Source: a virus
Lineage: Duplodnaviria; Heunggongvirae; Uroviricota; Caudoviricetes; Herelleviridae
Length of the DNA stretch: 64,000 nucleotides
Direction: 5' to 3' (one strand)
Virus record (IMG/VR): IMGVR_UViG_2974580128_000001
Within the stretch, counting starts at the first letter, position 1; every line of letters starts with the position of its first letter. This document shows positions 4,732-56,461 of this stretch, one piece after another. The translations under genes were made by a program, and so were the position numbers. The notes beneath the pieces were generated by a model that saw only the letters and a list, made by a program, of their open reading frames with translations, was not told the DNA's origin and searched no databases.

Positions 4732-4744
4732 GGAGAAAACAGAC

Positions 4745-4924
4745 ATGGAAACAGTAAAAGACATTAAAAGAATGATAGGAACACTAAAAGAGGATATAAA
4801 GCATAAAGAAAGCTATATAAAGGAATTAGACGAACAAGGAAGAATGATAGAGTCAGAACTATTGAAAGCAGAAGTAAAAGGAATGAGGGACGTTATTCAG
4901 GACATAGAACAAGCTATATATTAG
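4745..4924 (+). CDS. small coiled-coil early protein (59 aa)
   Basis: ATG 4745 after RBS aaggagaaaa; below ORF-track cutoff. Confidence 0.4.
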   Translation: METVKDIKRMIGTLKEDIKHKESYIKELDEQGRMIESELLKAEVKGMRDVIQDIEQAIY

Positions 4925-4938
4925 AAGGAGGGGAAAAC

Positions 4939-5142
4939 ATGAAAGAAGTTAAGCTTATTCAATTAGACAAGAAAGAAATAGATAGTTATCACACATGGGG
5001 CATATTTGACACAACGGAACCAATAGAAGACGGGGACAGAATTTCTATATATGACCATAAAACGGGGGGCGTTTTACTTATAGACGTTATAACAGTAATC
5101 AAGGAAACAGAAGGCTATTTCTTTCTTATTATAGAAGAATAG
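4939..5142 (+). CDS. hypothetical early protein
   Basis: 67-aa ORF, RBS aaggagggg. Confidence 0.5.
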   Translation: MKEVKLIQLDKKEIDSYHTWGIFDTTEPIEDGDRISIYDHKTGGVLLIDVITVIKETEGYFFLIIEE

Positions 5143-43036: not shown

Positions 43037-43267
43037 TCAGTTTTTGTCATCAGGTTCTAATAGCTTGTCCGCAGGCATATCAAAAATCCGAGCTAGTTTA
43101 GCTTGATTATTTGCTCTGGGTTTTTTGATTCCATGCTCCCAATAGGATACGGTTGACCAATGTACACCTAGTTTTTTAGCTACAGAACGCAAGGATTCAT
43201 GCTTTTCTTCACGAACACGTTTCAGCACCAAGGGTTTTGGCTTGCTTTCCACGATTCTCCCCTCCAT
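43037..43267 (-). CDS. XRE-family HTH regulator
   Basis: LRSVAKKLGVHWSTVSYWEHG helix-turn-helix. Confidence 0.65.
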   Translation of the reverse strand: MEGRIVESKPKPLVLKRVREEKHESLRSVAKKLGVHWSTVSYWEHGIKKPRANNQAKLARIFDMPADKLLEPDDKN

Positions 43268-43310: not shown

Positions 43311-44843
43311 TTATTTAAGTGCTTCTTTTACAAAGTCGTATTCTGGTTTATTTAACACAGACAACATCATTTCTTCTGGGGAAGTAATTTCTCCGCCTAA
43401 CACTTGTGTTAAGATGTTTGTGGAGAACCCAGATACTAAAGCTGTTCCTTTTTCGTCAAAACGTACAGGTGTATTATCATGACGAGAGTTTACATTCCAG
43501 AATACTACAGATGGTAACTCGTAACCTGCCTGTTCGAACTTAAGTTTTGCTTGTTCATAGTTAGTGTAACCTGCCACACCTTGGTCAAATTCCATATCGG
43601 AAATAATAACGATTTTTGAAGGTAAATCATTTTGTGGTGTGTGGTTTTTCACCGCAGTAGATAAAATCAAGTCGAATACTTTTTGTAAATTTGTATTTCT
43701 AGCATTGTATGAACATTTATCGTAAGCTTTCATCTTATCCATAAGTGTACCTGACAATGGTAAGTTTACTAAACGAGGTTGTTCAGAAAATACGATGAAA
43801 TGACCTTTGAATGCACCACTTAAGCGTTCAGCAGTGTAGATAGCTAAACCTTCTGCAACTTCCCAAGGGGTAACATTTTCTGTACCACCCCATGTCATAG
43901 AACCAGAAGTATCCGCAACTACAATTGCATTATCTTCAATATCTTTCAACACATCGTCCATAGATTTCCATGTTGCTTCTAGTGAACGGTCTAATGTTCT
44001 GTAGTAACTTCTGCTACCATAAGCCCGAATTACTTCATGAGGTAACATGTTCTTTGCGTTCATTGTTACTTCCCCAGATTCTACTTTAGAAAGTAAATCT
44101 TCATATTCGTCTGGCATGTGTAATTGCAAAGCTTTACGGTATTTGAACAATGCTTTAGAGGATACTTGGTTCAAATCAATCTTATGGTATTCCTTGCTTG
44201 CTAACCGAACTTCAATTACATTTAAATAATCACGTAATTTAGCAATCATTTTACGATAACGAGTTAGACCTGCTTTACCTTCAAAACCTAAATAGTTAGC
44301 AATACGAGCACCTTGATTACGTTTCTTGCTATTTGGAGAACTTACATTAGCTAACCATTTACCTAGTAATGATACAGGCTCACCTTCTGACATGTTTTTA
44401 ATATCAGATGTTAGTTGGTTACCGATGATACGTGCACCTTCTGTATCCACAAAGTGAATACTACGTTTGTGTGCGTACTCCATAGTTTCAAATAAGTCTG
44501 TCCAACGACCAACATATGCCATGTACTCCATTAAAGTAACGATTACTTGCTTGTTTTGGTTACGACCATCCACTAAGTATTTGATTGCTTCTAGGTAAGC
44601 GGAACGTTCACCCAATCCACCTAAACGGATATTACGTAAGTGTACCAAATTGCGTAATGCTAACTCTGGGTTTTCATCGTAGGCTTTAGCAAACATGTTT
44701 CGTACATCTCCTAAACGACCACGCATAGCCCCTGCTTGTGCAAAGAAGTCTAAGTTAGCGTTTAAAGTTGATGTATAAGTTTTAGCTCCATTTTCTGTAG
44801 AACCAACAGTTGTTTCTTCTTTTAGGTTGTCTAAAAATGACAT
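43311..44843 (-). CDS. rsr: Ro60-like protein (Rsr ortholog: TROVE domain plus vWA/MIDAS)
   Basis: 510 aa; N-terminal TROVE-like helical region and C-terminal vWA domain with MIDAS motif DTSGSM; same architecture as bacterial Rsr. Confidence 0.7.
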   Translation of the reverse strand: MSFLDNLKEETTVGSTENGAKTYTSTLNANLDFFAQAGAMRGRLGDVRNMFAKAYDENPELALRNLVHLRNIRLGGLGERSAYLEAIKYLVDGRNQNKQVIVTLMEYMAYVGRWTDLFETMEYAHKRSIHFVDTEGARIIGNQLTSDIKNMSEGEPVSLLGKWLANVSSPNSKKRNQGARIANYLGFEGKAGLTRYRKMIAKLRDYLNVIEVRLASKEYHKIDLNQVSSKALFKYRKALQLHMPDEYEDLLSKVESGEVTMNAKNMLPHEVIRAYGSRSYYRTLDRSLEATWKSMDDVLKDIEDNAIVVADTSGSMTWGGTENVTPWEVAEGLAIYTAERLSGAFKGHFIVFSEQPRLVNLPLSGTLMDKMKAYDKCSYNARNTNLQKVFDLILSTAVKNHTPQNDLPSKIVIISDMEFDQGVAGYTNYEQAKLKFEQAGYELPSVVFWNVNSRHDNTPVRFDEKGTALVSGFSTNILTQVLGGEITSPEEMMLSVLNKPEYDFVKEALK

Positions 44844-44883
44844 CTGACATCTCTCCTTTGTATGGTAATGTTTTATCTAACAC

Positions 44884-44913
44884 CACTATAACATGTAATA
44901 TTATGTAAGTCAA
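44884..44913 (-). promoter_or_regulatory. minus-strand sigma-A-type promoter for rsr (TTGACT-18-TATAGT)
   Basis: plus text actata...aagtcaacac. Confidence 0.5.
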
Positions 44914-45029
44914 CACTTTTTGTAAATAAAAAACTCATCCGATTAAGAATGAGTTTGTATGTAATATCAAGAACCACAGGCTTAATTAAATTCAATAGTT
45001 TTAATTTGTTAGTTGATTGCTGTAGGGTT

Positions 45030-45615
45030 CTTTATGCTCTGGCAACCTAAGAGGTTAGAGCTATGGCAAAATACCAAAACCTTTTTGATATGTAACAAGA
45101 ATCTATTTTATACGTTGCTCTACCAACTGAGCTACAGGGGGAATCATCCTCCCGGCAGGACTCGAACCTGCGACCAACGGCTCCATAGGCAATAAAAATC
45201 GCTGTTAGATTCTTTATGTTCCGGCACCCATCAAGGATGGAACTATAGCTATGCTAAAACCGTTTTATTTATGTATCAAGAAGCAGTTATGCCACCAATC
45301 GGCATCCTCATAATTTGGGTTGAGAATATAGGAGTTGAACCTAAGTAAGGGTTTGCTGTATGCTTCTTTATGCTTCGGCGCCCATTAAGGGTGAAGCTAT
45401 GACCTAAGCCAAAACCGTTTTATTTATGTAACAAGAACGCATTAACTTTAAGCTTTACCAATTAAGCTATACCACCAATGGTGGCAGTTGGATTCGAACC
45501 AACAACTCACATTTTTCAGATGTATTAGTTTTAAAAGTTTGCTGTGGCGTTCTTTATGTTCCGGCTACCTGTTAGGTTGGAACTATGACATATGTCAAAA
45601 CCTTTTTATCTTGTC
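45030..45615 (-). ncRNA. three tandem circularly permuted tRNA-like modules (Y-RNA/YrlA-like tRNA mimics) separated by four copies of a ~75-nt repeat
   Basis: minus-strand order in each module is T-arm (e.g. GGTCGCAGGTTCGAGTCCTGCC), closed acceptor-like hairpin, D-arm (e.g. GTAGCTCAGTTGGTAGAGC), all bracketed by an imperfect closing stem; repeat units A 45031-45108, B 45196-45270, C 45352-45428, D 45540-45612 show compensatory changes in an internal hairpin. Confidence 0.55.
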
Positions 45616-45671
45616 TTTATAATAGCATAAACTATTCAAACTGTCAACTATTAATTTAAATATATTGAAAC

Positions 45672-45896
45672 TTATTTAAAAGCTCCAATATATTTAACAG
45701 TACCCTTGCATTTACGTGCAAAAGCTTCTAGCTCTTTACGAGCACCTAAACGGTCTGGTTGAGAAGACTGTACTGTAACTTCTTTTGGTACAGTAATTTC
45801 ACGAGTTTTCTTAACTGTCTTTCCGTTTTTTAACTTTTGTTCGTACTCTTCTGTACGAGTAGAAGTTGTTGAAATAATTCCGTAAAATTTAGACAT
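45672..45896 (-). CDS. small basic protein
   Basis: 74-aa ORF, RBS ggaggtcac. Confidence 0.5.
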   Translation of the reverse strand: MSKFYGIISTTSTRTEEYEQKLKNGKTVKKTREITVPKEVTVQSSQPDRLGARKELEAFARKCKGTVKYIGAFK

Positions 45897-45926
45897 GTTA
45901 TGTGACCTCCGGTCATTTTATTTTAA

Positions 45927-46008
45927 TGGGGAGTGATGGAGTTGCACCACCCGAGCTTTCGCAACTGATTTACAGTCAGCCCCGCTACTACTTACGGTAT
46001 AACTCCCC
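45927..46008 (-). tRNA. tRNA-Tyr(GTA) candidate, type II, atypical T-loop TGCAACT
   Basis: acceptor GGGGAGT/ACTCCCC, anticodon stem GCTGA/TCAGT with loop CTGTAAA, long variable arm. Confidence 0.35.
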
Positions 46009-46204
46009 GCATAGGTATGTATATATCAATACAATGTACAAGAACTTTTAGTGAGGTAGCTCTCATAGTGTATTAATGGGGTACATTGTGTAACTTCAAC
46101 TAGTATTGCCTCACACGTGACTAGTCTTATATACACAATGCCTACATACAACCCGATAGACCACCCTTGGTACGCATATTAAGAGGCGCAGGGTGATACG
46201 AATA

Positions 46205-46275
46205 TATGGATTGCAGGATTCGAACCCGCACCCTTTGGTTGGAAGCCAAAGATACTACCCTTATACTAAATCCAC
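46205..46275 (-). tRNA. tRNA-Gly(TCC)
   Basis: acceptor GTGGATT/AATCCAT, anticodon loop CTTCCAA, T-arm GCGGGTTCGAATCCTGC. Confidence 0.65.
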
Positions 46276-46395
46276 ATAATGTTAATAGGCGGGTACCCGA
46301 CAGCGAAGTATCATTCCTGTCTTGTCATTCTCCTATTAACTCCATAATACCTTGCCTAGAGTTGAGCTAGGTCTCACATTTATCGAAGGTATTAA

Positions 46396-46468
46396 TCGGG
46401 AAAGCAGGACTTGAACCTACGACCCCACGCTCCCAAAACGTGTGCGCTACCAACTGCGCTATTTCCCG
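46396..46468 (-). tRNA. tRNA-Pro(TGG)
   Basis: acceptor CGGGAAA/TTTCCCG, D-arm GCGCAGTTGGTAGCGC, anticodon loop TTTGGGA, T-loop TTCAAGT. Confidence 0.75.
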
Positions 46469-46547
46469 TTAACTTATACATATATTATAACACAAACTTA
46501 CATGATGTCAACAACTATTTGTAAGTTTTTTTAATTTATCCATTCGG

Positions 46548-46634
46548 GACAGTGTGCTTTAACCATTCAGCCACCCGCAGGGGTAACCCGCAGGACGGGA
46601 TTCGAACCCGTATACCACTGTCCTATTGGATAGG
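46548..46634 (-). ncRNA. fourth permuted tRNA-like module (T-arm ACGGGTTCGAATCCCGT, then D-arm-like GCTGAATGGTTAAAGC) closed by 8-bp stem GGACAGTG/CACTGTCC
   Basis: T-arm precedes D-arm on the transcribed strand; no complementary acceptor strands at the ends; outer inverted repeat at 46548-46555 and 46627-46634. Confidence 0.45.
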
Positions 46635-46789
46635 CTTGTGTACCTGTCATCTTCCGATTACACACACCTAGTCTAGTTACCGTACCAATAGATTTGACAG
46701 GAATCTAGGGTAACGCCCAATATGGTGTTAATTTACCTTGTATTCTGTTACAGGTTTGCAACCCTGAACAAGGATGACCAATCCTAATG

Positions 46790-46859
46790 ATATGCGAGGG
46801 GATTTGAACCCCTATCTACTTCATAGGTCACTTTATCCACTTAAGCTACGCATACCTAT
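46790..46859 (-). tRNA. tRNA-like gene, anticodon undetermined (short D/anticodon region)
   Basis: acceptor GTATGCG/CGCATAT and T-arm AGGGGTTCAAATCCCCT are clear; body is ~6 nt shorter than canonical. Confidence 0.35.
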
Positions 46860-46912
46860 TTAATTTCTAGCTAGGTAACTAAATTCACTGCACCTTGCGC
46901 AGAGTACAGCTA

Positions 46913-46985
46913 TGGAGCATAGCGGACTTGAACCGCTGACATCTACCTTGCAAGGGTAGCGCTCTCCCAACTGAGCTAATGCCTC
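46913..46985 (-). tRNA. tRNA-Ala(TGC) with G3:U70
   Basis: D-arm GCTCAGTTGGGAGAGC, anticodon loop CTTGCAA, T-arm AGCGGTTCAAGTCCGCT, G3-U70 wobble in acceptor. Confidence 0.75.
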
Positions 46986-46993
46986 GTATAAAA

Positions 46994-47066
46994 CACCTCC
47001 GCTGAGATTCGAACTCAGAATGCGGGATTAGAAATCCTGTGGTTTATCCAATTAGCCTACGGAGAT
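46994..47066 (-). tRNA. tRNA-Arg(TCT)
   Basis: anticodon loop TTTCTAA, T-arm CTGAGTTCGAATCTCAG; acceptor with one mismatch. Confidence 0.55.
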
Positions 47067-47265
47067 ATACTTACTTAAACGGAAGATAAATTGTTTGACC
47101 AATTCTAAGTTTATTAGGGTCTTTAATACTTCTATTCTGACCATGCAACCTAATTAGTCTCCATAACCAAGGCTTGCCATAATATTTTCTAGCAATAGAA
47201 TACATTGTGTCACCTTTTTCAACTGTGTATCTCATAACAATTACCCTCCTAAGTTATAAATATGG

Positions 47266-47634
47266 CTATATATAGGATACTCCTGTAAACAATTCAATTG
47301 CTTCAATTTCAGTATGGAAGTTTTCCCATTCTAAACATTCATAGAAATCTTGTAAGATATGCTTGTCTTTCCTGTAAACAGTCTCACCTTTATGGGCTTT
47401 CTCACAGATTTCTCTAACAGCATCCACATTATACTTACCACCAGTTTTATACTGCTCTAAACCAGAATTTAATAAAGCTCGTTGTACTTCTTCACTTTTA
47501 TCCCCTGCTTTCCAAGAGTCAAAAGCTTTATCATACAATGTATCTTCCATGTGTTCACCTTCTACTTCCATGATTGATTGAATAAATCTTTGCCACTTAG
47601 AAGGCTCCTTGTGTTTAACTTTACGAAAACTCAT
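47266..47634 (-). CDS. hypothetical protein inside the tRNA array
   Basis: 122-aa ORF, RBS ggaggctaatc. Confidence 0.5.
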   Translation of the reverse strand: MSFRKVKHKEPSKWQRFIQSIMEVEGEHMEDTLYDKAFDSWKAGDKSEEVQRALLNSGLEQYKTGGKYNVDAVREICEKAHKGETVYRKDKHILQDFYECLEWENFHTEIEAIELFTGVSYI

Positions 47635-47659
47635 GATTAGCCTCCATTATCTTTAATGA

Positions 47660-47747
47660 ACCGAGGAGGAGGGACTCGAACCCCCAAACGCTTTTACACG
47701 TCTATGACTTTTCAAGAGTCAATTTTTTCCAGTTATGATACTCCTCG
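47660..47747 (-). tRNA. tRNA-Ser(TGA), type II
   Basis: acceptor CGAGGAG/CTCCTCG, anticodon stem TGACT/AGTCA with loop CTTGAAA, long variable arm ACGTGTAAAAGCGT. Confidence 0.7.
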
Positions 47748-47858
47748 AAAAAGAAATTGATTGACTAGTACTGTTAGTTGACTAGCCAACCGGAACTACT
47801 TAAACCGAACTCTTTAAACAGCTTTAGTAGTTATTATTTAGGTTTTTAGATAAACAAC

Positions 47859-48119
47859 TTACCAAAACCAAACTAGATTTAATGCTAGTCGTTTACTAAT
47901 AATAGGTGATTTTCTATGTCTAACCGATTTAAACTTGCGTACATTCCCCTTATATGGTGTAAAGTCAATCTTACAGGGTTCAACATAATTAAATTTACGG
48001 TTAGCTCGTTTAATTACTGCTTGCTTTTGTTTAGAAGCTTTAATTTCTTTTTCAAATGCTTCTTTTTCAATGTTGTTAGCTATAGTTGCTAAATGTTCAG
48101 TCATAAAGCTCATATCCAT
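47859..48119 (-). CDS. hypothetical protein inside the tRNA array
   Basis: 86-aa ORF, RBS aaggagagatgg. Confidence 0.45.
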   Translation of the reverse strand: MDMSFMTEHLATIANNIEKEAFEKEIKASKQKQAVIKRANRKFNYVEPCKIDFTPYKGNVRKFKSVRHRKSPIISKRLALNLVWFW

Positions 48120-48137
48120 CTCTCCTTACATGTTCTA

Positions 48138-48224
48138 TGGAAGGCATGGGATTCGAACCCACACATGCTGTTACACATCTACTTGGTTTCCAACCAAGCC
48201 TCTTTACCGTTTGAGTAACCTTCC
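48138..48224 (-). tRNA. tRNA-Ser(GGA), type II
   Basis: acceptor GGAAGGT/GCCTTCC, anticodon stem CTTGG/CCAAG with loop TTGGAAA, long variable arm, T-arm GTGGGTTCGAATCCCAT. Confidence 0.75.
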
Positions 48225-48318
48225 GTCTCGGGAGCAGGCGTGTTTGTCCAAAGGGGACAATACATAATCTTCTGTGCATATTGTTCCCTAGGCTTTATGC
48301 ACACCCGTTATCTGCATA

Positions 48319-48504
48319 CTAACAGACCCGCCAATTTTCTAACACTTTTTCTAATGCTTCGTACGGACACATTACTGTCTTACCGTGAACACCATGTATT
48401 CTCAAAATAATATAATGTTCATTTATCTCGGAGGTAACAAAGTATATCTTATCCTTCACTAAACCTAAACTTCCGTTTAAACCAATGAATTTTAAATACA
48501 TCAT
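48319..48504 (-). CDS. small hypothetical protein
   Basis: 61-aa ORF, RBS ggaggtaac. Confidence 0.4.
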   Translation of the reverse strand: MMYLKFIGLNGSLGLVKDKIYFVTSEINEHYIILRIHGVHGKTVMCPYEALEKVLENWRVC

Positions 48505-48786
48505 GTTACCTCCTAACTATGTATAACCCATAAAGCATCATGGGGGGACTGTAGTATGCCCAACCTGCGGGGATGCTCCGCTCTGAATCCGTAGAAATCA
48601 GCCACAATTCGATATTTATTTAGTGAAAAAATTAGTTAAGATTCGACTGCTTGACAAAGGCAGTCTATGTCACTGGCAAGGATTTGCACCTTGCAGTCGG
48701 GAACGAGCCGTCGCCTATCTATCCCTCAAATAAGCTCCAAATACCCTACGTTTTTAGTATTGGCTACTTATACGTCTACCTATTCC

Positions 48787-48812
48787 GCCACAGTGACTAT
48801 GGAGCTGACGGG
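48787..48812 (-). ncRNA. tRNA/tmRNA-like 3' fragment (GGGTTCAATTCCCGTCAGCTCCA)
   Basis: minus-strand sequence resembles the T-arm plus 3' acceptor strand of tmRNA (..GGGUUCAAcUCCCGcCAGCUCCAcca) but no partner 5' acceptor strand within 100 nt; lies 70 nt from the GIY-YIG gene. Confidence 0.3.
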
Positions 48813-48878
48813 AATTGAACCCTACAACTCCACTTGTGCTATATTGTAAGTATAACATATAAAAAGGAGACTTACAAC

Positions 48879-49601
48879 ATGACACAAGGAATTTACTTAA
48901 TTACAAATATTGTTAACAATAGACACTACGTAGGACAATCAAAAGATATTGAACGTAGGTGGAACGAACACAGACATAGTACTTTTAATACTAATGCTAC
49001 TGATTACGAAACTCCCCTACACCGTGCATTTAGAAAACACGGAATGGAAAACTTCATATTTGAAATCCTAGAAGTTGTACCGAACCATTCGGAACTTAAT
49101 TCTATCGAGAACAAGTATATTGCAAAGTATAACTCTATTGGTAATGGTTACAACCAGATAATCACTTCACGCAATGGTCTTTCAAAAGAAGAAATTAATA
49201 AGAAACGTGAATTAAAATATGGTGTAACTAGAGACAAGCTTTACAATCAGCTAATGCTTGATTCTTTTAGTAAAGTCGCTAGCTACTATGGTGTATCCTC
49301 AAACGCTATTAAAAAATGGTGTAAAGACTATGACCTACCTACATCTGCTAAAGCTTATGACAATCCCGAAAAGTCTAAAAGATATAGTGAACTTATGAGA
49401 AAGTTAGCTACAGAGTCATCAACCAAAAAGAAACGAATAGCTATGATTGATAAGGACACCTCTGTTGTTATAAAAGAATTTGATTCTGTTAGAGAAGCCT
49501 CAGAATACATCGGAACTTCTACTAGTAATATAACAAGAGCAGTACATGGTTATGAGGGCAGAACCACTTCATGTGGCTACCGTTGGTCATATATAAAATA
49601 A
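48879..49601 (+). CDS. GIY-YIG homing endonuclease (free-standing, opposite strand to the tRNA array)
   Basis: N-terminal GIYLITN...YVGQS (GIY-YIG motif), conserved R and E downstream, C-terminal basic DNA-binding region; ATG 48879 after RBS aaggag. Confidence 0.75.
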   Translation: MTQGIYLITNIVNNRHYVGQSKDIERRWNEHRHSTFNTNATDYETPLHRAFRKHGMENFIFEILEVVPNHSELNSIENKYIAKYNSIGNGYNQIITSRNGLSKEEINKKRELKYGVTRDKLYNQLMLDSFSKVASYYGVSSNAIKKWCKDYDLPTSAKAYDNPEKSKRYSELMRKLATESSTKKKRIAMIDKDTSVVIKEFDSVREASEYIGTSTSNITRAVHGYEGRTTSCGYRWSYIK

Positions 49602-49603
49602 CA

Positions 49604-49680
49604 AAATGGAACTGAGGGGAATCGAACCCCTGTGTTGACGTAGAACCATACAAAATTCTACGGGCGTAGTTACTAGTTTT
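49604..49680 (-). ncRNA. tRNA-like 3' fragment (T-arm AGGGGTTCGATTCCCCT plus CAGTTCCA) with no identifiable 5' half
   Basis: clear T-arm and acceptor-like 3' strand; upstream is a 6-bp stem CGTAGA/TCTACG with a 12-nt loop instead of canonical anticodon/D arms. Confidence 0.3.
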
Positions 49681-50186
49681 AATCTACATTAAGGCTACAA
49701 CTAATAACTGAAATTACCTTAACTGAGTGGTAAAGCCTCTCCTGAGTTATCCACTTTTACCTCAGCGTTGTCGGTTAATGAATCCTCTAGGTAGAACCGA
49801 CCCTAATCTAGAGGGGTAAGTGTGTAGCTAGTCTAAAACTAGGCTACAGCTAGTAATTCTTCGTTTTTAGCAGTTATATTTACTGCGATGATTAAGTCAT
49901 CACTCTGCCCGCTATTCATATACTTCTTACGCCAGTCGAAACCAAAACAGCCCCAACATAAGAATTTCTTTTGACTAACCCTACCCTTCCGGCAGGGTCT
50001 AATCAAAAGTATACAATTAAAAAATGAAAATGAGTTACGGAAAATGTAACGTCTCCACCACCGGACTATAAGGGTAAGTTGTTCCGGTCTTTAACCTAAG
50101 TACTTTACTTAAATCTAACAGGACAGTCTTCATTACGTAAACTACTTAACCATGTAAAACGTAAAGGTCAATTTCCGTTGACCTAA

Positions 50187-50272
50187 TACAAGAGGAGGGA
50201 TTCGAACCCTCACGCCTATCACAGGCATGGCATTCTAAGTGCCACATGTCTACCAATTCCAACACTCTCGCA
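50187..50272 (-). tRNA. tRNA-Leu(TAG), type II
   Basis: anticodon stem TGGCA/TGCCA with loop CTTAGAA, long variable arm GCCTGTGATAGGC, T-arm GAGGGTTCGAATCCCTC. Confidence 0.7.
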
Positions 50273-50448
50273 TAATCACTTTTTAAACTAGATTACTTAT
50301 GGTTTCTCACTTCTGAAAAAATACCACTTTATATATCAACATTTTTCTTATGAATGGGTTAAGATATGTTTTAACGAAAAAGAGGCTAAAAGAGTATTTC
50401 CTCAAAATTTTCGGTCAAGTTAATCTAGTAAGGAAAAGTGTAACCTTA

Positions 50449-50520
50449 TGTGACTGCTCAGAATCGAACTGAGATTCATGTTTCCACAGAACACTGCCTT
50501 ACCATTAGGCTACAGTCACC
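50449..50520 (-). tRNA. tRNA-His(GTG) with encoded G-1
   Basis: acceptor GTGACTG/CAGTCAC preceded by extra G, D-arm GCCTAATGGTAAGGC, anticodon loop CTGTGGA. Confidence 0.7.
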
Positions 50521-50591
50521 ATCATGTGTTCCTTACAAGAATTACTATACAGCATCTTGTAAGGAAAGTCAACACTTACATATAAATTTAT

Positions 50592-50813
50592 TTAAAAAAG
50601 TTTTGATGAATCTAATTGAGAGAAACTTTCGGGTAGAGAACCTAGCTCTTCCATGTACTCTTGGTCAATCTCGTAAACAGTTAACTCCGTTACTTCATTT
50701 TCAATGGTAAGTTTCATTGCTTCTGCTGTTTGTATACTGTGTCCTTCTACTTGAAGCTTATCATCAAGATAAATGCCTTCCCAGTCTCCTGCAACTACAT
50801 AATCTGCTTTCAA
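50592..50813 (-). CDS. hypothetical acidic protein
   Basis: 73-aa ORF. Confidence 0.45.
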   Translation of the reverse strand: MKADYVVAGDWEGIYLDDKLQVEGHSIQTAEAMKLTIENEVTELTVYEIDQEYMEELGSLPESFSQLDSSKLF

Positions 50814-50821
50814 GATATTAC

Positions 50822-51073
50822 CTACTTTCTCCTCAATTTCTGATAAAAATTATTATCCTTGTAATCTTCCTCGTGGGCATAAAATTTTTTCATATCATAT
50901 GTCCAACAAGTTTCTTCTAATCGTTTATGATGTGTCAATGTTACTTCATCATCAAAACGACCTTGATTTAATTTATGCCTGTAATTTCTGTTAACCATTC
51001 TTTTTATGTCTCGAACAGTTGAATCCTTCATACAAACATAACGGTAATAGGGTTTTCTGTAACTTCTACTCAT
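50822..51073 (-). CDS. hypothetical basic protein
   Basis: 83-aa ORF, RBS aaggaggac. Confidence 0.5.
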   Translation of the reverse strand: MSRSYRKPYYRYVCMKDSTVRDIKRMVNRNYRHKLNQGRFDDEVTLTHHKRLEETCWTYDMKKFYAHEEDYKDNNFYQKLRRK

Positions 51074-51129
51074 TGTAAGTCCTCCTTAATAGGTACTTAC
51101 AATTTATTTAACCTTTTTTTCATTTTTTA

Positions 51130-51372
51130 TAGCCCTCTTTCGAACAGACGTCTTAAAGTCTTACCCTCATTATTTAAAACATATACCGAGTTAACATAAG
51201 CCTTTGTCTCTCCTTTGTTGTCAACTCTATATTCATAGGGTTCATTTGGAACACGGGTAATCTCTTCATGTTTAGAATTAAGTAAAGAAAAAGCATTTTC
51301 TTGTTCTAAAAGAAATTGTACCCCATCAATAAGTTCGATAAAAGGTTTAGACGTAAACTAACGACAGGTCAT
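51130..51372 (-). CDS. candidate ORF with in-frame TAG at codon 5 (ATG ACC TGT CGT TAG + 76 sense codons)
   Basis: 76-codon open frame with no ATG/GTG/TTG start other than the ATG located 4 codons upstream of an in-frame TAG; could be a pseudogene or evidence of amber read-through. Confidence 0.25.
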
Positions 51373-51392
51373 AGTTTTCCAATTAAGGCAAA

Positions 51393-51466
51393 TACCAGTG
51401 AGAGGATTTGAACCTCTGACACCCGCCTTATCAAGACGATGCTCTAACCAACTGAGCTACACTGGT
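51393..51466 (-). tRNA. tRNA-Ile(GAT)
   Basis: D-arm GCTCAGTTGGTTAGAGC, anticodon loop TTGATAA, T-arm AGAGGTTCAAATCCTCT. Confidence 0.75.
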
Positions 51467-51619
51467 GTGACCCATGTGTCAGGACTTTCACCTGTTCTCG
51501 GGGTGCCCCGCCTCTCTACTAATCTCCTCATTCGGTGCCCCTAATAGAGTGACTAGAGATAGTTAGCAGTAAAAATTATATATCATGAATCAAATTTTTA
51601 CTGCATCCTATATACACGA

Positions 51620-51691
51620 TACCGTCTACAGGATTTGAACCTGTGACATCCACCTTGTAAGGGTGGCGTTCTCCCACTGAACTAAGACGGT
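51620..51691 (-). tRNA. tRNA-Val(TAC)
   Basis: D-arm GTTCAGTGGGAGAAC, anticodon stem CCACC/GGTGG with loop CTTACAA, T-arm ACAGGTTCAAATCCTGT. Confidence 0.75.
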
Positions 51692-51698
51692 GAAAAAT

Positions 51699-51793
51699 AC
51701 GGAAGACAGGATTTGAACCTGCGATATAGGAGTTTTAGTGCACTCATTGTCTCCCACGGTATCCGTTGCGTATTGCCATCACGCCACTCCCGT
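51699..51793 (-). tRNA. tRNA-like gene, unassigned (possible type II)
   Basis: T-arm GCAGGTTCAAATCCTGT and 3' acceptor CTTCCGT are clear; candidate 5' acceptor ACGGGAG lies 95 nt away; anticodon arm not resolved. Confidence 0.3.
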
Positions 51794-51800
51794 ATGCTAA

Positions 51801-51873
51801 CCGACAGTAAAGGAATCGAACCTCTATCACTAGATTCGTAGTCTAGCATCCTATCCAATTGAACGAACTGTCG
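51801..51873 (-). tRNA. tRNA-Arg(ACG)
   Basis: perfect acceptor CGACAGT/ACTGTCG, anticodon stem CTAGA/TCTAG with loop CTACGAA. Confidence 0.7.
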
Positions 51874-51975
51874 CTATAGGCTAGCAATTACGCAGACTGA
51901 CTATAGGCACCTTCGTCCCGTCACCTGTAAGTGCCATCCTACAGGTTGTCCGTGGCACCGCAATGTACTAACCGA

Positions 51976-52049
51976 TGTCCCCACAGGGATTTGAACCCCG
52001 AACCCCCCGATTAAAAGTCGGGTGCTCTAGCCGATTGAGCTATGAAGAC
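51976..52049 (-). tRNA. tRNA-Lys(TTT)
   Basis: D-arm GCTCAATCGGCTAGAGC, anticodon stem CCCGA/TCGGG with loop CTTTTAA, T-arm CGGGGTTCAAATCCCTG. Confidence 0.75.
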
Positions 52050-52099
52050 AGTTGTGTTTTTCAAGATAACCCTCTTGAAAAACCGTTACTAATAGAAAA

Positions 52100-52175
52100 A
52101 CTAAGGGTCTCGACTGACAGATTTGAACTGTCTGCTCCTCCTAAGAGGCGTGTTACCAAAGCCATACACCAACTC
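52100..52175 (-). tRNA. tRNA-like gene, unassigned (non-canonical anticodon region)
   Basis: T-arm GACAGTTCAAATCTGTC and a 5-of-7 acceptor; central region has only a CCTC/GAGG stem with a 4-nt loop. Confidence 0.3.
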
Positions 52176-52183
52176 TTCGAGAA

Positions 52184-52257
52184 TATCCCCTACAGGATTC
52201 GAACCTGTGACCCCCTGATTAAGAGTCAGGTGCTACCACCAACTGAGCTAAGGAGAT
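52184..52257 (-). tRNA. tRNA-Lys(CTT) candidate
   Basis: acceptor ATCTCCT/AGGGGAT (one G-U), D-arm GCTCAGTTGGTGGTAGC, anticodon stem CCTGA/TCAGG with loop CTCTTAA, T-arm ACAGGTTCGAATCCTGT. Confidence 0.55.
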
Positions 52258-52272
52258 AAGATTACCAATAGC

Positions 52273-52346
52273 TAGTTAAGCCTTACGGAATCGAACCGCC
52301 ATGAGGTTATGAAGCTCACATAGACCACTAGACACAAAACTAGCTT
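52273..52346 (-). tRNA. tRNA-like gene with CAT anticodon loop (TTCATAA) and atypical T-arm/acceptor junction
   Basis: perfect 7-bp acceptor GCTAGTT/AACTAGC; T-loop TTCGATT present but 5 extra nt between T-stem and acceptor. Confidence 0.3.
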
Positions 52347-52449
52347 ATTGATAAAATTCTATATAGATAATTGTATGCAATGTTCGCACTAACTAACCAG
52401 ATAACCAGTCAATCATTCAAAACATTAATTTGTGAGTTTCCGCTCACAA

Positions 52450-52521
52450 TGCTGATTGAGAGAATCGAACTCCCATTCCCGGGTTACAAAGCCGGAGTAA
52501 TAGCCGTTATACTAAATCAGC
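52450..52521 (-). tRNA. tRNA-Thr(TGT)
   Basis: perfect acceptor GCTGATT/AATCAGC, anticodon loop TTTGTAA (C-C mismatch closing pair), T-arm GGGAGTTCGATTCTCTC. Confidence 0.6.
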
Positions 52522-52560
52522 GTAACCCCTCAATAGAGGGGAATTATTATACTAAGTTAC

Positions 52561-52858
52561 CATACCCGTAGGTATTTGTTTGAGCTTGTTTAAACATAAT
52601 GCTCTTGATAGTTAAGTCGTTGTACTTTTCATCGTCTTCATCATCAAGGTACACATCAACGTTAACGTTCTTACCGGAAATACCGATTGTTTCGTCTTTA
52701 CCAACTGTTAAGTCTTTACTGTTGAAGGATACATCAAAGTAAATGCTATCTTCTTTTGTACGACTACCGAACGAAACTCTGTCACCGAATAAATCTAAGC
52801 TTCGAGAGTTGATTACAACAGGTTGTAACCCACCTTCAAATTGAATAGTTACTGTGTA
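52561..52858 (-). other. 100-codon open coding-like frame directly in frame after the TAG stop of the AAA ATPase gene (possible read-through extension or pseudogene fragment)
   Basis: ...ENQ TAG YTVTIQFEGGLQPVVINSRSLDLFGDRVSFGSRTKEDSIYFDVSFNSKDLTVGK... TAA; no plausible start codon in the first ~85 codons. Confidence 0.35.
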
Positions 52859-53638
52859 CTATTGATTTTCAATATTAAGGATGTTTAAGTCAGCAATAGC
52901 TTCACCAAATGGGATACCAAAGCTTAATTCCAATGCAATTGCTCGTAAGCAGTCATAGTTTAACTTAATTCTACGGCTAAACTTAACAACACTGTCAATT
53001 TCACCATAGTAAGCTTCGTCTAACTTATCTTGCAAGTAAGTGCGAATTTCATCTGCATCAGGATATTCGAAACGTAAATGATAATGGAAACGTCCCGGAC
53101 GGTTAAGCATAAAGTCATTTACACGACTTAAGCTATTAACAGTAAGAGCGTAGATACGTTTACGTTGTGATAAACCATCGAATAAGCTCAATAGTTTTTC
53201 TTGTGGTTCACGACCGTCACGGTCATTGAATACTTTTTCAAATTCATCGAACAGGATAAGAGACTCTTGGTCAATACTGTCAATAAATTCTGCAATCCCC
53301 GGATAAGCTTCTGTAATTAAGATAACAGGCATATCCTCTTCAATAGCTCGTTGAGATAAGATTTGAGTAAATAGTGATTTACCAATCCCTTTGTCTCCAC
53401 TTAAAATGATTCCTAAGCTACGATTAATTGTTTTAAATGTGTGTAGCACTTTTTCAATTTTAGCTAAACGGTCACCGTAAACTTTAGGTTCTTTCAATTC
53501 AAAATCGTCTGTTACTACTAGTGAGAACCCAGACATTGGATTGAATCGGACTTTATAAGTTTGCGCAGGCAACTTATCATAAGTTTTAAGGTCGTTTGCA
53601 TAAATTTCATAGTTACTACCATAGTTGATTACTTTCAT
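52859..53638 (-). CDS. AAA-family ATPase
   Basis: Walker A GDKGIGKS and Walker B LILFDEFEK; ATG 53638 after RBS aagggga; the ORF-track N-terminus would overlap tRNA-Phe. Confidence 0.7.
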   Translation of the reverse strand: MKVINYGSNYEIYANDLKTYDKLPAQTYKVRFNPMSGFSLVVTDDFELKEPKVYGDRLAKIEKVLHTFKTINRSLGIILSGDKGIGKSLFTQILSQRAIEEDMPVILITEAYPGIAEFIDSIDQESLILFDEFEKVFNDRDGREPQEKLLSLFDGLSQRKRIYALTVNSLSRVNDFMLNRPGRFHYHLRFEYPDADEIRTYLQDKLDEAYYGEIDSVVKFSRRIKLNYDCLRAIALELSFGIPFGEAIADLNILNIENQ

Positions 53639-53677
53639 AAATATTCCCCTTATTCGTGTTTTATTAGCATTTGCTAA

Positions 53678-53751
53678 TGGAGAGGGGTGGAATTGAACCA
53701 CCGACCCCTAGGGTTTCAATCTAGTGCTCTAACCTACTGAGCTACCTCTCC
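53678..53751 (-). tRNA. tRNA-Phe(GAA)
   Basis: perfect acceptor GGAGAGG/CCTCTCC, D-arm GCTCAGTAGGTTAGAGC, anticodon loop TTGAAAC, T-arm GGTGGTTCAATTCCACC. Confidence 0.7.
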
Positions 53752-53873
53752 GTGTCAATTTGGACTTATCCCCCACGTGGTTACTAAGATAAGTCCTATG
53801 CCTTTGAAGTGTGGATACTCAAAAAATGAGTACAGGTACTAAAAATCTGATGACAAGTCAGATTTATGTCATA

Positions 53874-53947
53874 AGCAGAAGGTGAGATTCGAACTCACGT
53901 TCAGGGGTTTGCAATCCCTAGCCTTAACCCACTTGGCTACTCCCGCA
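53874..53947 (-). tRNA. tRNA-Cys(GCA)
   Basis: anticodon stem AGGGA/CCCCT with loop TTGCAAA, T-arm GTGAGTTCGAATCTCAC. Confidence 0.6.
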
Positions 53948-54186
53948 TTGGCATCCCTCTAGGTTTTTATCTGCATCGGGACTCACATAAACTGATAAGT
54001 GAAAACAGGGCACTAGTCTGCTTTACACCTGCGCTATCAGAACCTAGACTCGGCAACACTGCCTTAGATGACTTTAATCTTGTAAACACGTCACATTCTT
54101 CAACAATTACCAGTAGAGTGCTACATACCAGTAATTCGTTCCTGTGAAGGATAGTACACTATAACTATCACCGCTGTCCAAGAATA

Positions 54187-54258
54187 CACGCCGTGAAGGA
54201 TTCGAACCCCCGTCTTCCGGGTTGGAGCCGGAAATGATAGCCACTACACCAACAGCGC
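54187..54258 (-). tRNA. tRNA-Trp(CCA)
   Basis: anticodon stem TCCGG/CCGGA with loop CTCCAAC, T-arm GGGGGTTCGAATCCTTC. Confidence 0.7.
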
Positions 54259-54468
54259 AAGATTCGGAGGGGAGGGACTAGCAACCCTCCGAAAAATGTA
54301 AGATAATGAGAGATTAAAACATGCCACTATTAAAAGTGGAATAGGTAATTAAGGATTCGAACCTTACAAGCCCTTACTGCTTACCTTGTAAACTTATAGT
54401 ATCATGTGTTGTACCGAAAGTCAACACTTTTTATAAAAATAATAGGGAGAAATATTTCTCCCTAAAAA

Positions 54469-54542
54469 TGGACTATACCGGAATTGAACCGATGACCTGT
54501 CAGTTATGAGCTGACGGCTCTGACCCACTGAGCTAATAGTCC
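54469..54542 (-). tRNA. tRNA-Met(CAT)
   Basis: perfect acceptor GGACTAT/ATAGTCC, D-arm GCTCAGTGGGTCAGAGC, anticodon stem GTCAG/CTGAC with loop CTCATAA. Confidence 0.75.
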
Positions 54543-54749
54543 GTGTAATAATACCACGAAATAAACCTTAGTAAGTCATATAGTCCCAGAAAGGGAGACA
54601 TATGAAACTAGTGTTGAATGCCATAATCGTTTAATAAATGTGACTGAGAGAGTAATAAATTTCTTAGGCATGTCCATATGCCTCCTTTCCAATAATGATA
54701 GTTTTAAGATATAAACAGAATAAATAAAAGAGAAAATAATAATGAATAA

Positions 54750-54821
54750 TAGCGCATGAGAGAGTCGAACTCTCGATTCCGGTTCGAAAGACCGGTGTCT
54801 TGACCGCTTGACCAATGCGCC
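54750..54821 (-). tRNA. tRNA-Glu(TTC)
   Basis: anticodon stem CCGGT/ACCGG with loop CTTTCGA, T-arm GAGAGTTCGACTCTCTC. Confidence 0.7.
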
Positions 54822-54826
54822 ATAAA

Positions 54827-54901
54827 CGAGCTATATGGGACTTGAACCCATGACCTTCTCCGTGACAGGGAGACGAGCACTCCTGACTGCTCCAATAGCC
54901 C
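54827..54901 (-). tRNA. tRNA-Asp(GTC)
   Basis: D-arm GAGCAGTCAGGAGTGCTC, anticodon stem TCTCC/GGAGA with loop CTGTCAC, T-arm ATGGGTTCAAGTCCCAT. Confidence 0.7.
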
Positions 54902-55026
54902 ACTGTTTCCCCAACCACCGCCACCTAGGGGATTCGTACGTCTACGTGAGTTTTCTGGTTATACATTATTGTTCAAGACAATAGTTGTACGAGTGGAATA
55001 CCAATTTACCACTCTGCGGTTCCTAT

Positions 55027-55098
55027 TGCGGTAGGTGGGAGTCGAACCCACTAAAGCTTGGTTATGAGCCAAGTGCCTAAACCGTTCGGCATCTCCGC
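55027..55098 (-). tRNA. tRNA with CAT anticodon (second Met or tRNA-Ile2/lysidine type)
   Basis: anticodon stem CTTGG/CCAAG with loop CTCATAA, T-arm GTGGGTTCGACTCCCAC; acceptor has one mismatch. Confidence 0.55.
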
Positions 55099-55801
55099 AG
55101 TAATACAAGTCTGGTTAAAAACTCAAAACTTAATAGATTAAGGGCTTTTCTTCCTGCTTCATATACACTCACTGCATTCGGTCACATACTCAGAGAGGCT
55201 GAACCATCGGGAGCTACCCAATAGCTTCTCTCTGCCTTTAATGTATGGTCTAGCACGGTGGCTAACAACGTTCACCTAAACATTCAGCATTAAAAGTATT
55301 ATTTTACATATAACCCATATGTCTTCTGTAATATTTTCATCCAACGCTGACTTAAGCTACTTGTACCAAGGTCTCTTGTTAAACCTGTATTTCTACAGTT
55401 CTCGTCAAAGGGAGTCTTTTGAGTTTTCCAAGGTCTGCCAAGCTTCTCACACTTCCACCTAACTTGGATTCTTTTCCACAGGAACGTCTATTGTATCCCC
55501 CAAGAGTCTTGTACCTTACAATCCATGTATACTCCACATAACGCTTAACTGATATTAGCTTTTACTAATAGTTACTCCTATGTTACCATAAGACCTACCT
55601 GCAACCCAAAGCACTATCGCACCTTCGGTTACATCCAGATTCACGCCACGTTATCCTAGCAAGCTGTTCAAACTTTCTGCACTAGGTTCAAAATCTATTA
55701 AGTTTTCAATTTTTAACCACTAACTTGTGGTGTAATACTAATATAGCATAACATTACAAAGTTGTAAACACCTTTTTGTAAGTTTTTTTGATTTTTTTTG
55801 A

Positions 55802-55890
55802 TGGAAGGTAAGGGGGTCGAACCCTTACACCGGATTTCTCCGACCTAACTGATTAGCAATCAGCCCTCTTAACCATTTGAGTAACCTTCC
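55802..55890 (-). tRNA. tRNA-Ser(GCT), type II
   Basis: acceptor GGAAGGT/ACCTTCC, anticodon loop TTGCTAA, long variable arm, T-loop TTCGACC. Confidence 0.7.
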
Positions 55891-55999
55891 AAAAGCAAAA
55901 AGGGAACCCCTGTAATTAAACAGGGGTAAGAGAGATGTCTCTAAAAGCCTACAACCATTATAACATAGAAACATAGTTTGTACAGCCGTAACTGTACAA

Positions 56000-56071
56000 C
56001 TGTCAGGACAGGGTTCGAACCTGTATCGCAACCTTCAAAGGGTCGTGTCCTACCTGTTAGACGACCTGACA
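56000..56071 (-). tRNA. tRNA-Gln(TTG) (U1:A72)
   Basis: perfect acceptor TGTCAGG/CCTGACA, anticodon stem CGACC/GGTTG with loop CTTTGAA, T-arm ACAGGTTCGAACCCTGT. Confidence 0.7.
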
Positions 56072-56163
56072 AAAAGGTGGAACCTCCCTAAATTTGGGGA
56101 AGAGGGAGGTTCTCATGCTATTAACAAACACGAATTTGCTAACCAAGTAATCTTGACTAGCAA

Positions 56164-56234
56164 CTCACCTAGCAGGACTTGAACCTACAAGAACTGGTTA
56201 ACAGCCAGTCATGATACCGTTTCATCATAGGTGA
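56164..56234 (-). tRNA. tRNA-Asn(GTT)
   Basis: perfect acceptor TCACCTA/TAGGTGA, anticodon stem ACTGG/CCAGT with loop CTGTTAA, T-arm TAGGTTCAAGTCCTG. Confidence 0.65.
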
Positions 56235-56461
56235 ATTTTAGTTCTATCAACATTATAACACAAAAGCTGATAGAACTAGCAACTTTTTTACAAACTTAAC
56301 AACTTTTTTCTTAACTACTGATTCAGCAACTTACTCAATAGTTAAAGACTTAAAGAAAGAGGAAGTAATTGAGGTATGTCAATCACTAACTAAAGTATAC
56401 AACATTTTTATTATCCTGACAACAACTAAATGCAAAAAAGTTCAAAAAAGATTATAAATAG

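Follow-up and report, generated by a model that had tools for sequence, protein, structure and literature searches.

The stretch of DNA analysed here, referred to as the window, comprises 64,000 nucleotides of a Herelleviridae virus (IMG/VR record IMGVR_UViG_2974580128_000001). It carries on its minus strand a gene for a 510-residue protein with a predicted Ro60-like fold, preceded by an array of four tandem RNA repeat units. The region is 100% identical, with unchanged coordinates, to that of Enterococcus phage EfV12-phi1 (Herelleviridae, Schiekvirus), and 91-99% identical to the region in 30 further Enterococcus phage records. RefSeq annotates 43311-44843 as gp087, 'RNA-binding protein', while 44844-45671 carries no annotation. 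In the order of transcription, the minus strand contains a tRNA cluster with a ROOL RNA and a transfer-messenger RNA (tmRNA), a 74-aa open reading frame (ORF), the repeat array, the 510-aa ORF and a helix-turn-helix (HTH) ORF. Because of this order the gene is at the downstream end of the tRNA cluster, and not at its head as an initial annotation of this DNA had placed it. The cluster itself was correctly recognised there: about 25 tRNA genes, together with the tmRNA and the ROOL RNA, lie at 46205-56235 on the same strand as the protein gene. The array is upstream of the gene on the same strand, with 115 nt between the end of the array and the start of the ORF. The gene and the four units are arranged as follows.

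43311-44843, minus strand: gene for the Ro60-like protein, 510 aa (DUF2828 plus DUF7788/vWA, with the MIDAS (metal ion-dependent adhesion site) sequence DTSGSM), RefSeq gp087; identified by Pfam and predicted fold
45424-45612, minus strand: RNA unit A; 5' hairpins 45596-45587 and 45583-45558, closing helix 45554-45547 / 45440-45433, ACAGCAA at 45545-45539
45269-45426, minus strand: RNA unit B; 5' hairpins 45410-45401 and 45397-45372, closing helix 45368-45361 / 45285-45278, ACAGCAA at 45359-45353
45088-45271, minus strand: RNA unit C; 5' hairpins 45255-45247 and 45243-45218, closing helix 45214-45206 / 45105-45097, ACAGCGA at 45205-45199
44958-45091, minus strand: RNA unit D; 5' hairpins 45075-45065 and 45061-45036, closing helix 45032-45026 / 44975-44969, ACAGCAA at 45023-45017

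The protein has Pfam matches to DUF7788 (PF25043; 155.1 bits, cut-off 27.1) and DUF2828 (PF11443; 92.8 bits, cut-off 29), as well as a weak match to VWA_2, and it matches PHROG 850, 'RNA-binding protein', with an E value of 4.5e-142. There is no Pfam match to TROVE (PF05731) in the protein, nor in any of 40 diverse homologs at E≤1 (0/40), and no Ro60 was found among the PDB sequences either by phmmer with the single sequence or by a 40-sequence profile. An AlphaFold2 model of the protein (predicted local distance difference test score, pLDDT, 91.3; predicted template modelling score, pTM, 0.91) consists of a HEAT-repeat domain and a C-terminal vWA domain, which is the layout of Ro60. When the model was compared with the PDB using Foldseek, the nine best matches were all Ro60 structures, aligned over the full length with template modelling (TM) scores of up to 0.63. 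The DTSGSM sequence occupies residues 311-316, and the MIDAS residues D311, S313, S315, T384 and D416 are invariant over the 40 homologs. The connection between DUF2828 and Ro60 comes from structure comparison alone, all of the sequence routes having failed. Since the predicted fold matches Ro60 but the sequence family is DUF2828/DUF7788, the protein, as modelled, is a Ro60 architecture in a separate sequence family, and is described here as Ro60-like and not filed as an Rsr ortholog. The initial annotation had called the ORF at 43311-44843 a TROVE-plus-vWA ortholog of Rsr (Ro60). The ORF is present on the minus strand, it has the MIDAS sequence, and the fold check that was proposed gave the match to Ro60 described above; the TROVE domain, and with it the orthology, is not borne out by the sequence.

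The DUF2828 family is large, with at least 7,465 protein clusters at E≤1e-5. Members are present in 698 phage isolate records or genomes, the hosts of which include Escherichia, Mycobacterium, Salmonella, Vibrio, Listeria, Staphylococcus, Campylobacter, Enterococcus and Bacillus. They are currently labelled DUF2828, 'vWFA protein' or 'RNA-binding protein', and a literature search for 'DUF2828' returned incidental mentions only. Burroughs and Aravind may have placed such proteins under the name 'Rot/TROVE' in 2016.

The four RNA units fill 45612-44958 and are ordered A, B, C, D in the direction of transcription. From 5' to 3', the plan of a unit is two small hairpins, a helix strand of the form AUAAAGAA-NNNN, the heptamer ACAGCAA, a variable insert, and the second helix strand NNNN-UUCUUG(U/A)UA. 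The variable helix bases change between units A-D in a compensatory fashion. The pattern AAAGAA-N4-ACAGCRA occurs 4 times in the window, compared with 0.00 expected by chance, the heptamer being ACAGCAA in units A, B and D and ACAGCGA in unit C. We define the family by a closing helix of at least 7 bp, followed on the 5' strand by N0-2 and ACAGCAA, with a 3' strand ending in CUUG; all four units have these features. The 5' hairpins were compared with those of five units at a related locus (L003, where the protein is 74% identical). Both sides of the pair change in 10 of the 13 pairs, and 96.6% of cells are paired, as against 30-54% in slid controls. A longer lower stem, proposed by eye, in which GGAAC would pair with GUUAC, was rejected because GGAAC is part of 5' hairpin 2, which covaries. 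No ribozyme family matches the two 5' hairpins in an Rfam scan, and a self-cleaving processing element is therefore unsupported.

The same signature was looked for next to related genes in two samples, namely 80 viral contigs with homologs at 34-99% identity and 80 bacterial genome loci (from Clostridia, Treponema, Thermotogota, Planctomycetales and Victivallales). In the viral loci, the counts of ACAGCAA on the strand of the gene are 148 for the 500 nt upstream of it, 67 and 49 for the two bins that follow, and 30 for the sequence directly past the gene stop, whereas on the opposite strand the three upstream bins have 0, 2 and 5 occurrences. The consensus reads AAG-R-C-R-C, two variable bases, ACAGCAA, a stretch rich in U, some 30-40 variable nucleotides and G-Y-G-Y-C-U-U-G, and a typical unit of the family is merely some 65-75 nt long. 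A perfect 7-bp partner of the 5' strand was present in 159 of 276 motif instances, compared with 34 of 276 when the 5' strand was shuffled; no selection for pairing was applied in this comparison. A 68-sequence seed alignment, itself selected for pairing, has double changes at all seven helix positions and was used to build a covariance model, R1.

Over the 64-kb window, the only R1 matches at E<0.05 are units A-D, and the next best match scores 12 bits. R1 finds 139 matches at E≤0.01 in the viral loci, 139/139 of them on the strand of the gene. The bacterial loci, none of which was used in R1, give 126 matches in 68 of the 80 loci; all are again on the gene's strand (126/126), and nearly all lie upstream at a distance of no more than about 1.1 kb. 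The helix is paired in 630/630 cells over 90 of these independent bacterial matches, compared with 31-55% in slid controls, and double changes are seen at all seven helix positions, in an alignment (A4) fitted to the model. There are up to 8 units per locus, with diversified interiors. R1 units are also present in a Listeria phage, Mycobacterium phage Finnry, the Felixounaviruses momo and Bas63, and Enterococcus phage VRE9_1. In three of these phages annotated hypothetical coding sequences overlap R1 units (Finnry gp55, L167 4035-4250; Bas63 bas63_0137, L170 12749-12901; VRE9_1 CDS0134, L171 2362-2478), and these are probably ORF calls over non-coding RNA genes.

No family in Rfam 15 matches typical units, and within the window they are covered only by sub-threshold matches to YrlA (RF02553). 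A sensitive scan with that model gives 45.2 bits at 45086-45199 and 34.3 bits at 45425-45532, with only the tRNA-like core aligning well and the stem region mismatched. The YrlA gathering score of 69 bits is reached nowhere in the window, and no Y RNA is called at Rfam gathering thresholds. The YrlA signature GNCGAAN0-1G is absent from the closing stems of units A-D; its sole match, GCCGAAG at 45379, is inside 5' hairpin 2 of unit B. On these sequence comparisons, units A-D are a putative RNA family apart from Rfam YrlA, defined by the closing helix and ACAGCAA. The covariance scan suggested with the initial annotation thus yields matches, all of them below threshold (45.2 and 34.3 bits, and 28.4 bits for a further RNA described below), and the description of the RNAs as YrlA-type has to be given up. 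For the helix+ACAGCAA RNAs, and for the operon of DUF2828, RtcB and WYL genes discussed below, no description was found in the searchable literature, which did not extend to the 2016 NAR paper of Burroughs and Aravind or to the Annual Review article of 2020 on Ro60 in bacteria. The putative RNA family, cognate to DUF2828, appears so far to be undescribed.

The interiors of the units differ, as listed here with their covariance scores.

45503-45487 (T arm), 45485-45471 (stem-loop) and 45468-45451 (D arm), minus strand: tRNA-like domain of unit A; Rfam YrlA 34.3 bits; R1 20.4 bits, E 0.041
45343-45329 (degenerate T-like arm), 45325-45305 (stem-loop) and 45304-45290 (D-like arm), minus strand: interior of unit B, from the minimum free energy (MFE) fold; R1 27.4 bits, E 0.001
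45171-45155 (T arm), 45154-45135 (stem-loop) and 45134-45116 (D arm), minus strand: permuted tRNA-like domain of unit C; Rfam YrlA 45.2 bits; R1 20.9 bits, E 0.033
45006-44984, minus strand: interior of unit D, a simple apical hairpin without a tRNA-like domain; R1 41.5 bits, E 5.6e-7, a near-identical copy of this unit from locus L002 having been among the R1 seeds

The initial annotation described four upstream tRNA-like modules in permuted order. Four units on the same strand are indeed present. Units A and C clearly have the order T arm, stem-loop, D arm, which is degenerate in B and absent from D. In the wider family, T-loop-like motifs are found in the variable interior of 25 of 154 units, compared with about 1 expected. 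At least one such unit is present in approximately 40% of the unit-bearing loci, and many units have no tRNA-like part. A different arrangement was found at viral locus L004, where three RNAs were read by sequence. They have normal acceptor, D and T arms and end in ACC, and the helix and ACAGCAA, capped by a short loop, replace the anticodon loop of an otherwise ordinary-looking tRNA-like RNA. Judged by their predicted pairing, the L004 RNAs and the permuted units of the window share one two-dimensional shape, with the chain break shifted. Oversized 'tRNA' matches (113-123 nt, 46-52 bits) lie beside DUF2828 genes of distant phages at L004 (3061-3177, 3393-3515 and 3600-3714), L008 (3492-3612) and L014 (5732-5844), and ARAGORN calls none of them.

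The genomic context was analysed by clustering the neighbouring ORFs over 163 loci. In 41 of the 80 bacterial loci (37 of the 68 with enough flanking sequence), RtcB is encoded downstream of DUF2828 on the same strand, at a median of 30 nt past the stop. Two WYL-domain proteins are encoded upstream in about 50 of the 80, and further loci carry RlaP or RNA ligases. The bacterial gene order is WYL regulators, RNA array, Ro60-like gene, RtcB. PADLOC returned nothing for the protein or for RtcB, its WYL matches being confined to the bacterial upstream genes. In the Listeria phage (L083), the distances downstream to RtcB and to an RNA ligase are 1.3 kb and 4 kb. The tie between a Ro60-type gene with Y-like RNAs and RtcB, which the initial annotation drew from cellular systems, is thus upheld by these loci, and the RtcB gene that it reported in the window is real:

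10889-12133, minus strand: RtcB RNA ligase; PF01139, E 1.1e-59, 203.2 bits, profile positions 15-425 of 426

Transfer RNA genes occur within the flanks of 57 of the 80 viral loci, with 345 on the same strand as the gene and 0 on the opposite strand. There is no nearby tRNA gene in 53 of the 80 bacterial loci.

Within the window, sites resembling transcription signals flank the array, and small ORFs lie on either side of the locus.

45619-45647, minus strand: promoter-like site before the RNA array and unit A; TTGACA-17-TATTAT, 11/12 with TG extension (extended -10), a consensus match only
44931-44956, minus strand: terminator-like hairpin closing the RNA array; 10-bp stem followed by TTTATTT, starting 2 nt past unit D
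44885-44913, minus strand: promoter-like site before the protein gene; TTGACT-17-TATAGT, 10/12 with TG extension, a consensus match only
45672-45896, minus strand: 74-aa basic, lysine-rich ORF, possible accessory protein; PHROG 6885, function unknown; syntenic neighbour
43037-43267, minus strand: 76-aa XRE-type HTH ORF directly downstream of the gene, possible regulator; PHROG transcriptional regulator families

Since promoter-like and terminator-like sites flank it, the array looks like a transcription unit of its own, of about 680 nt, as predicted from these consensus sites. Both small ORFs are syntenic in the Listeria phage (L083): the 74-aa ORF is 33% identical to the ORF at the same position, and the HTH ORF is 42% identical to the HTH_3 gene that follows the DUF2828 homolog.

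Ro60-Y RNA particles are a classic RNA-surveillance system, yet they are poorly understood. Ro60 holds Y RNA on its outer surface and takes the ends of single-stranded RNA into its central cavity. To our knowledge, bacterial Y RNAs have so far been found almost solely beside TROVE-annotated proteins.

Chen et al. (2014) described YrlA RNAs in 254 bacteria and 22 phages, next to Ro60 genes annotated as TROVE, and suggested that GNCGAAN0-1G makes the contact with Ro60. Phage Ro60 proteins with neighbouring Y-like RNAs have already been published (PMC4201824, PMC12135203), so that a phage-encoded system as such, which the initial annotation offered as a candidate undescribed system, is not new. 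In jumbo phages, 'ROT/TROVE' proteins have been noted. The Ro60 phages of Chen et al., picked by TROVE annotation (for example ET08), may be a different set from the DUF2828 phages. The closest bacterial systems are Rsr-YrlA/YrlB-RtcB of Salmonella (rsr-yrlBA-rtcBA, regulated by RtcR) and Rsr-Y RNA-PNPase of Deinococcus. They share with the locus described here a HEAT-repeat ring plus vWA/MIDAS (in our case a predicted fold), adjoining same-strand small RNAs with a stem made from the 5' and 3' ends, the permuted order of T arm, stem-loop and D arm, an operon linkage to RtcB, and a ligand-sensing regulator (PMC4201824, PMC7790460). The bacterial DUF2828 order parallels rsr-yrlBA-rtcBA under RtcR, with WYL in place of the CARF domain of that regulator (PMC7790460). 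The differences are that the present protein belongs to DUF2828/DUF7788 without a TROVE sequence signal, and is known from sequence and predicted fold; that the RNA has a handle of helix plus ACAGCAA instead of GNCGAAN0-1G; and that the RNAs form arrays of up to 8 units, many without a tRNA-like part.

Three phage systems are also close. The Ro60 of Thermus phage phiLo binds two upstream Y-like RNAs (Yrl1/Yrl2) and recruits the host PNPase (PMC12135203). It is, unlike the window protein, a TROVE-domain Ro60, and its RNAs were chosen by their CGAA motif; binding, a dimeric ribonucleoprotein and PNPase recruitment have been experimentally shown for phiLo (PMC12135203), whereas the window system is a prediction from sequence. 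The E. coli phage Bas63 (JohannRWettstein) encodes gp130, which is homologous to the window protein (31% identity over 494 aa, E 1e-75). A PhageMaP preprint reports a structural resemblance of gp130 to Ro60, a location next to a tRNA cluster and a counter-defence activity against the ppl system (10.1101/2024.10.10.617714). The protein family and the adjoining tRNA cluster are thus common to both phages, as are the R1 units, which lie in Bas63 at L170 12068-12145, 12235-12303 and 12690-12768, corresponding to 82067-82144, 82234-82302 and 82689-82767 of MZ501086. The Bas63 authors guessed that some annotated tRNA genes are Y RNAs; the R1 units are unannotated RNAs between the tRNA genes. They are downstream of the gene and interspersed, while the array in the window is compact and upstream. 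Annotators of actinobacteriophages name DUF2828 proteins 'Ro-like RNA binding protein', and gp54 of Mycobacterium phage Finnry, which bears this name, has the same DUF2828+DUF7788 architecture and 34% identity. Two ACAGCAA units and a YrlA-like tRNA domain are found just downstream of gp54, where, unlike those of the window, they overlap an annotated hypothetical coding sequence.

On the basis of these observations, we hypothesise, with a probability of roughly 0.6, that the locus specifies a counterpart of the Ro60-Y RNA ribonucleoprotein in which protein and RNA both come from other families. In this particle, gp087 would fold like the Ro60 ring, with a HEAT-repeat domain and a vWA domain with an intact MIDAS. 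Transcription of the array from a promoter of its own would yield a precursor of about 680 nt containing the four units (45612-44958), which would then be cut into small RNAs. The helix formed by both ends of each RNA (AAGAA-NNNN / NNNN-UUCUUG), together with a single-stranded ACAGCAA, would be the handle that docks on the protein, as the Y RNA stem does on Ro60. The variable interior would then be the cargo, in units A-C a mimic of the tRNA elbow (T arm, stem-loop, D arm). Such cargo could recruit enzymes acting on tRNA or RNA ends, such as RtcB, host exonucleases, RNase P and the CCA-adding enzyme, or alternatively it could serve as a decoy for tRNA-attacking nucleases. In both cases the particle would aid the repair or surveillance of tRNA and other RNA during infection, alongside the phage tRNA set and RtcB, or would counter tRNA-directed immunity. 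The analysis itself establishes the predicted fold, the conserved and covarying RNA signature, its same-strand adjacency to the gene across phyla, and the operon linkage to RtcB and WYL regulators. Expression and processing of the RNAs, their binding by the protein, and a role of the particle, which may be in quality control or against nucleases, are inferences.

A broader version of this hypothesis is possible, although we regard it as doubtful. The helix+ACAGCAA RNAs might be a very widespread and so far unrecognised class of modular 'display' RNAs, in which a constant handle sits on the DUF2828 ring and the cargo is an exchangeable piece of tRNA (an elbow, a T arm by itself, or a complete tRNA body whose anticodon loop is replaced by the handle). 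Phage arrays might then titrate or redirect tRNA-targeting immune nucleases and channel broken tRNAs to RtcB, and bacteria might run a WYL-regulated damage-response operon. If this were true, DUF2828 and its RNAs would be a second, independent lineage of Ro60/Y-RNA-type particles and would represent a general phage counter-defence strategy.

Several observations weigh against the proposed particle. In the window genome RtcB is 32 kb away from the array locus. Thermodynamic z-scores are modest (-0.7 to -1.8 for single units and -2.1 for the whole array); this support is weak and is not used as evidence, the structural case being built on covariation. Here perfect pairing was the selection criterion for the seed alignment, and the A4 alignment is model-fitted, both of which favour the helix. 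Units A and C have marginal R1 scores (E 0.03-0.04), because the model penalises large inserts. Mimicry of an anticodon stem-loop also lacks specific support: 7-nt YU-NNN-R-N loops were counted in 57 of 154 units and 12 in shuffles, but since the reverse complement has 47 the excess is a generic enrichment of hairpins, and the claim was dropped. Finally, gp130 of Bas63 by itself, without the neighbouring RNAs, restores T7 plaquing on ppl when supplied from a plasmid or from the T7 genome (10.1101/2024.10.10.617714), and therefore at least one activity of the family may do without cognate RNAs.

This T7 transfer experiment allows what is the main rival explanation, namely an anti-defence role of the protein by itself, which might for instance inhibit a host nuclease such as ppl via its vWA/MIDAS, with the RNAs either gating or regulating it or being unrelated. 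The intact and invariant MIDAS site would fit such an activity. However, arrays are kept in 68 of the 80 bacterial chromosomal loci, where anti-defence has no obvious role and where RtcB and WYL are part of the operon; the units keep a strict association with the gene in strand and position across phages of Firmicutes, Actinobacteria and Proteobacteria; and gp130 could have used host RNAs in the T7 experiment. We consider this explanation unlikely, if the one most deserving of attention. It is improbable that the units are cis-regulatory leaders (attenuators or autoregulatory sites) of the DUF2828(-RtcB) mRNA and not free small RNAs. Their usual location, on the same strand and no more than about 1 kb upstream of the gene, and in bacteria between the WYL regulator genes and the operon, is what a leader would show; yet in the window a terminator-like site and a second promoter-like site part the array from the ORF, in Felixounavirus and mycobacteriophage genomes units are placed downstream of the gene or are interspersed between tRNA genes, and up to 8 units per locus with diversified cargo, including whole tRNA-like bodies, would be unusual for a leader.

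Transfer into the phage of the Salmonella rsr-yrlBA-rtcBA system itself, with a true Rsr/Ro60 (TROVE) ortholog and canonical YrlA, would account for the predicted fold, for the alignment of the tRNA-like domains of units A and C to the YrlA model, and for the RtcB gene in the genome. It is hard to reconcile with the failure to find TROVE in any of the 40 family members or Ro60 in the PDB by sequence or profile, and with YrlA scores of 45, 34 and 28 bits against 69, mismatched stem regions and closing stems without GNCGAAN0-1G, so that we give it little credence. Lastly, the repeats could lack a function and be duplications, or tRNA pseudogenes in decay, at the border of the tRNA cluster: in units A and C the T and D arms look like those of the tRNA genes nearby (families D3 and D4), and RefSeq leaves the region unannotated. 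This seems very improbable, given that the parts that are not tRNA-like (closing helix, ACAGCAA and 5' hairpins) are conserved and covary, and that the signature also stands beside bacterial DUF2828 genes, mostly at loci that have no tRNA gene nearby.

The locus thus points to a system parallel to Ro60-Y RNA, with an RNA signature that annotation pipelines miss, sometimes calling spurious ORFs over it. If confirmed, the ribonucleoprotein that we propose would give a function to a widespread DUF and explain unannotated gaps in many phage tRNA clusters. It would also suggest a candidate RNA cofactor for the anti-ppl phenotype of Bas63 gp130, and, with minimal units of about 65-75 nt, provide a tractable model of the function of tRNA-mimicking Y RNAs.

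It is worth adding some observations on the neighbourhood of these loci. In Finnry (L167 1-1318), a gene for a band-7-like membrane protein, followed by tRNA-Tyr, is 1.2-2.5 kb upstream of the DUF2828 gene. SPFH/band-7 proteins with a tRNA-like partner were reportedly proposed by Burroughs and Aravind in 2016 as another scaffold for RNA repair. A homing-endonuclease ORF at 48834-49601, on the plus strand and thus opposite to the tRNA genes, is inserted into the tRNA cluster of the window, and different endonuclease insertions are found near the array in the related phages EFDG1, PEf771 and phiSHEF13.

One further RNA in the window resembles YrlA.

46533-46633, minus strand: YrlA-like permuted tRNA-like RNA; Rfam YrlA 28.4 bits, MFE z = -3.15, no R1 match, without ACAGCAA

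It has a long stem, GGACAGUG/CACUGUCC, broken by an AAUA/CGAA internal loop, and is just upstream of a perfect sigma-70-like promoter (46511-46484) for tRNA-Pro. A link between this RNA and the Ro60-like system is uncertain.

The tRNA cluster also contains a full-length ROOL RNA (55124-55710, minus strand, 260 bits). In the Listeria phage (L083), a ROOL-like match at 4469-5020 (90 bits, threshold 99) has the equivalent place, about 1 kb upstream of the DUF2828 gene. The tmRNA (49604-49954, minus strand), which encodes the tag peptide AKNEELLAVA, is without annotation in RefSeq. At 51698-51793 (minus strand) there is a tRNA-like RNA (33.3 bits, above the Rfam tRNA threshold) with about 30 nt in place of a 7-nt anticodon loop. 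It has no ACAGCAA, is called by neither ARAGORN nor RefSeq, and might represent a further tRNA mimic or else a tRNA carrying an insertion. Finally, a near-threshold tRNA without RefSeq annotation lies at 45929-46006 (minus strand; 27.7 bits compared with 29). Its anticodon loop is CUGUAAA (GUA, Tyr) and its variable arm is long; the cluster would have no other tRNA-Tyr.

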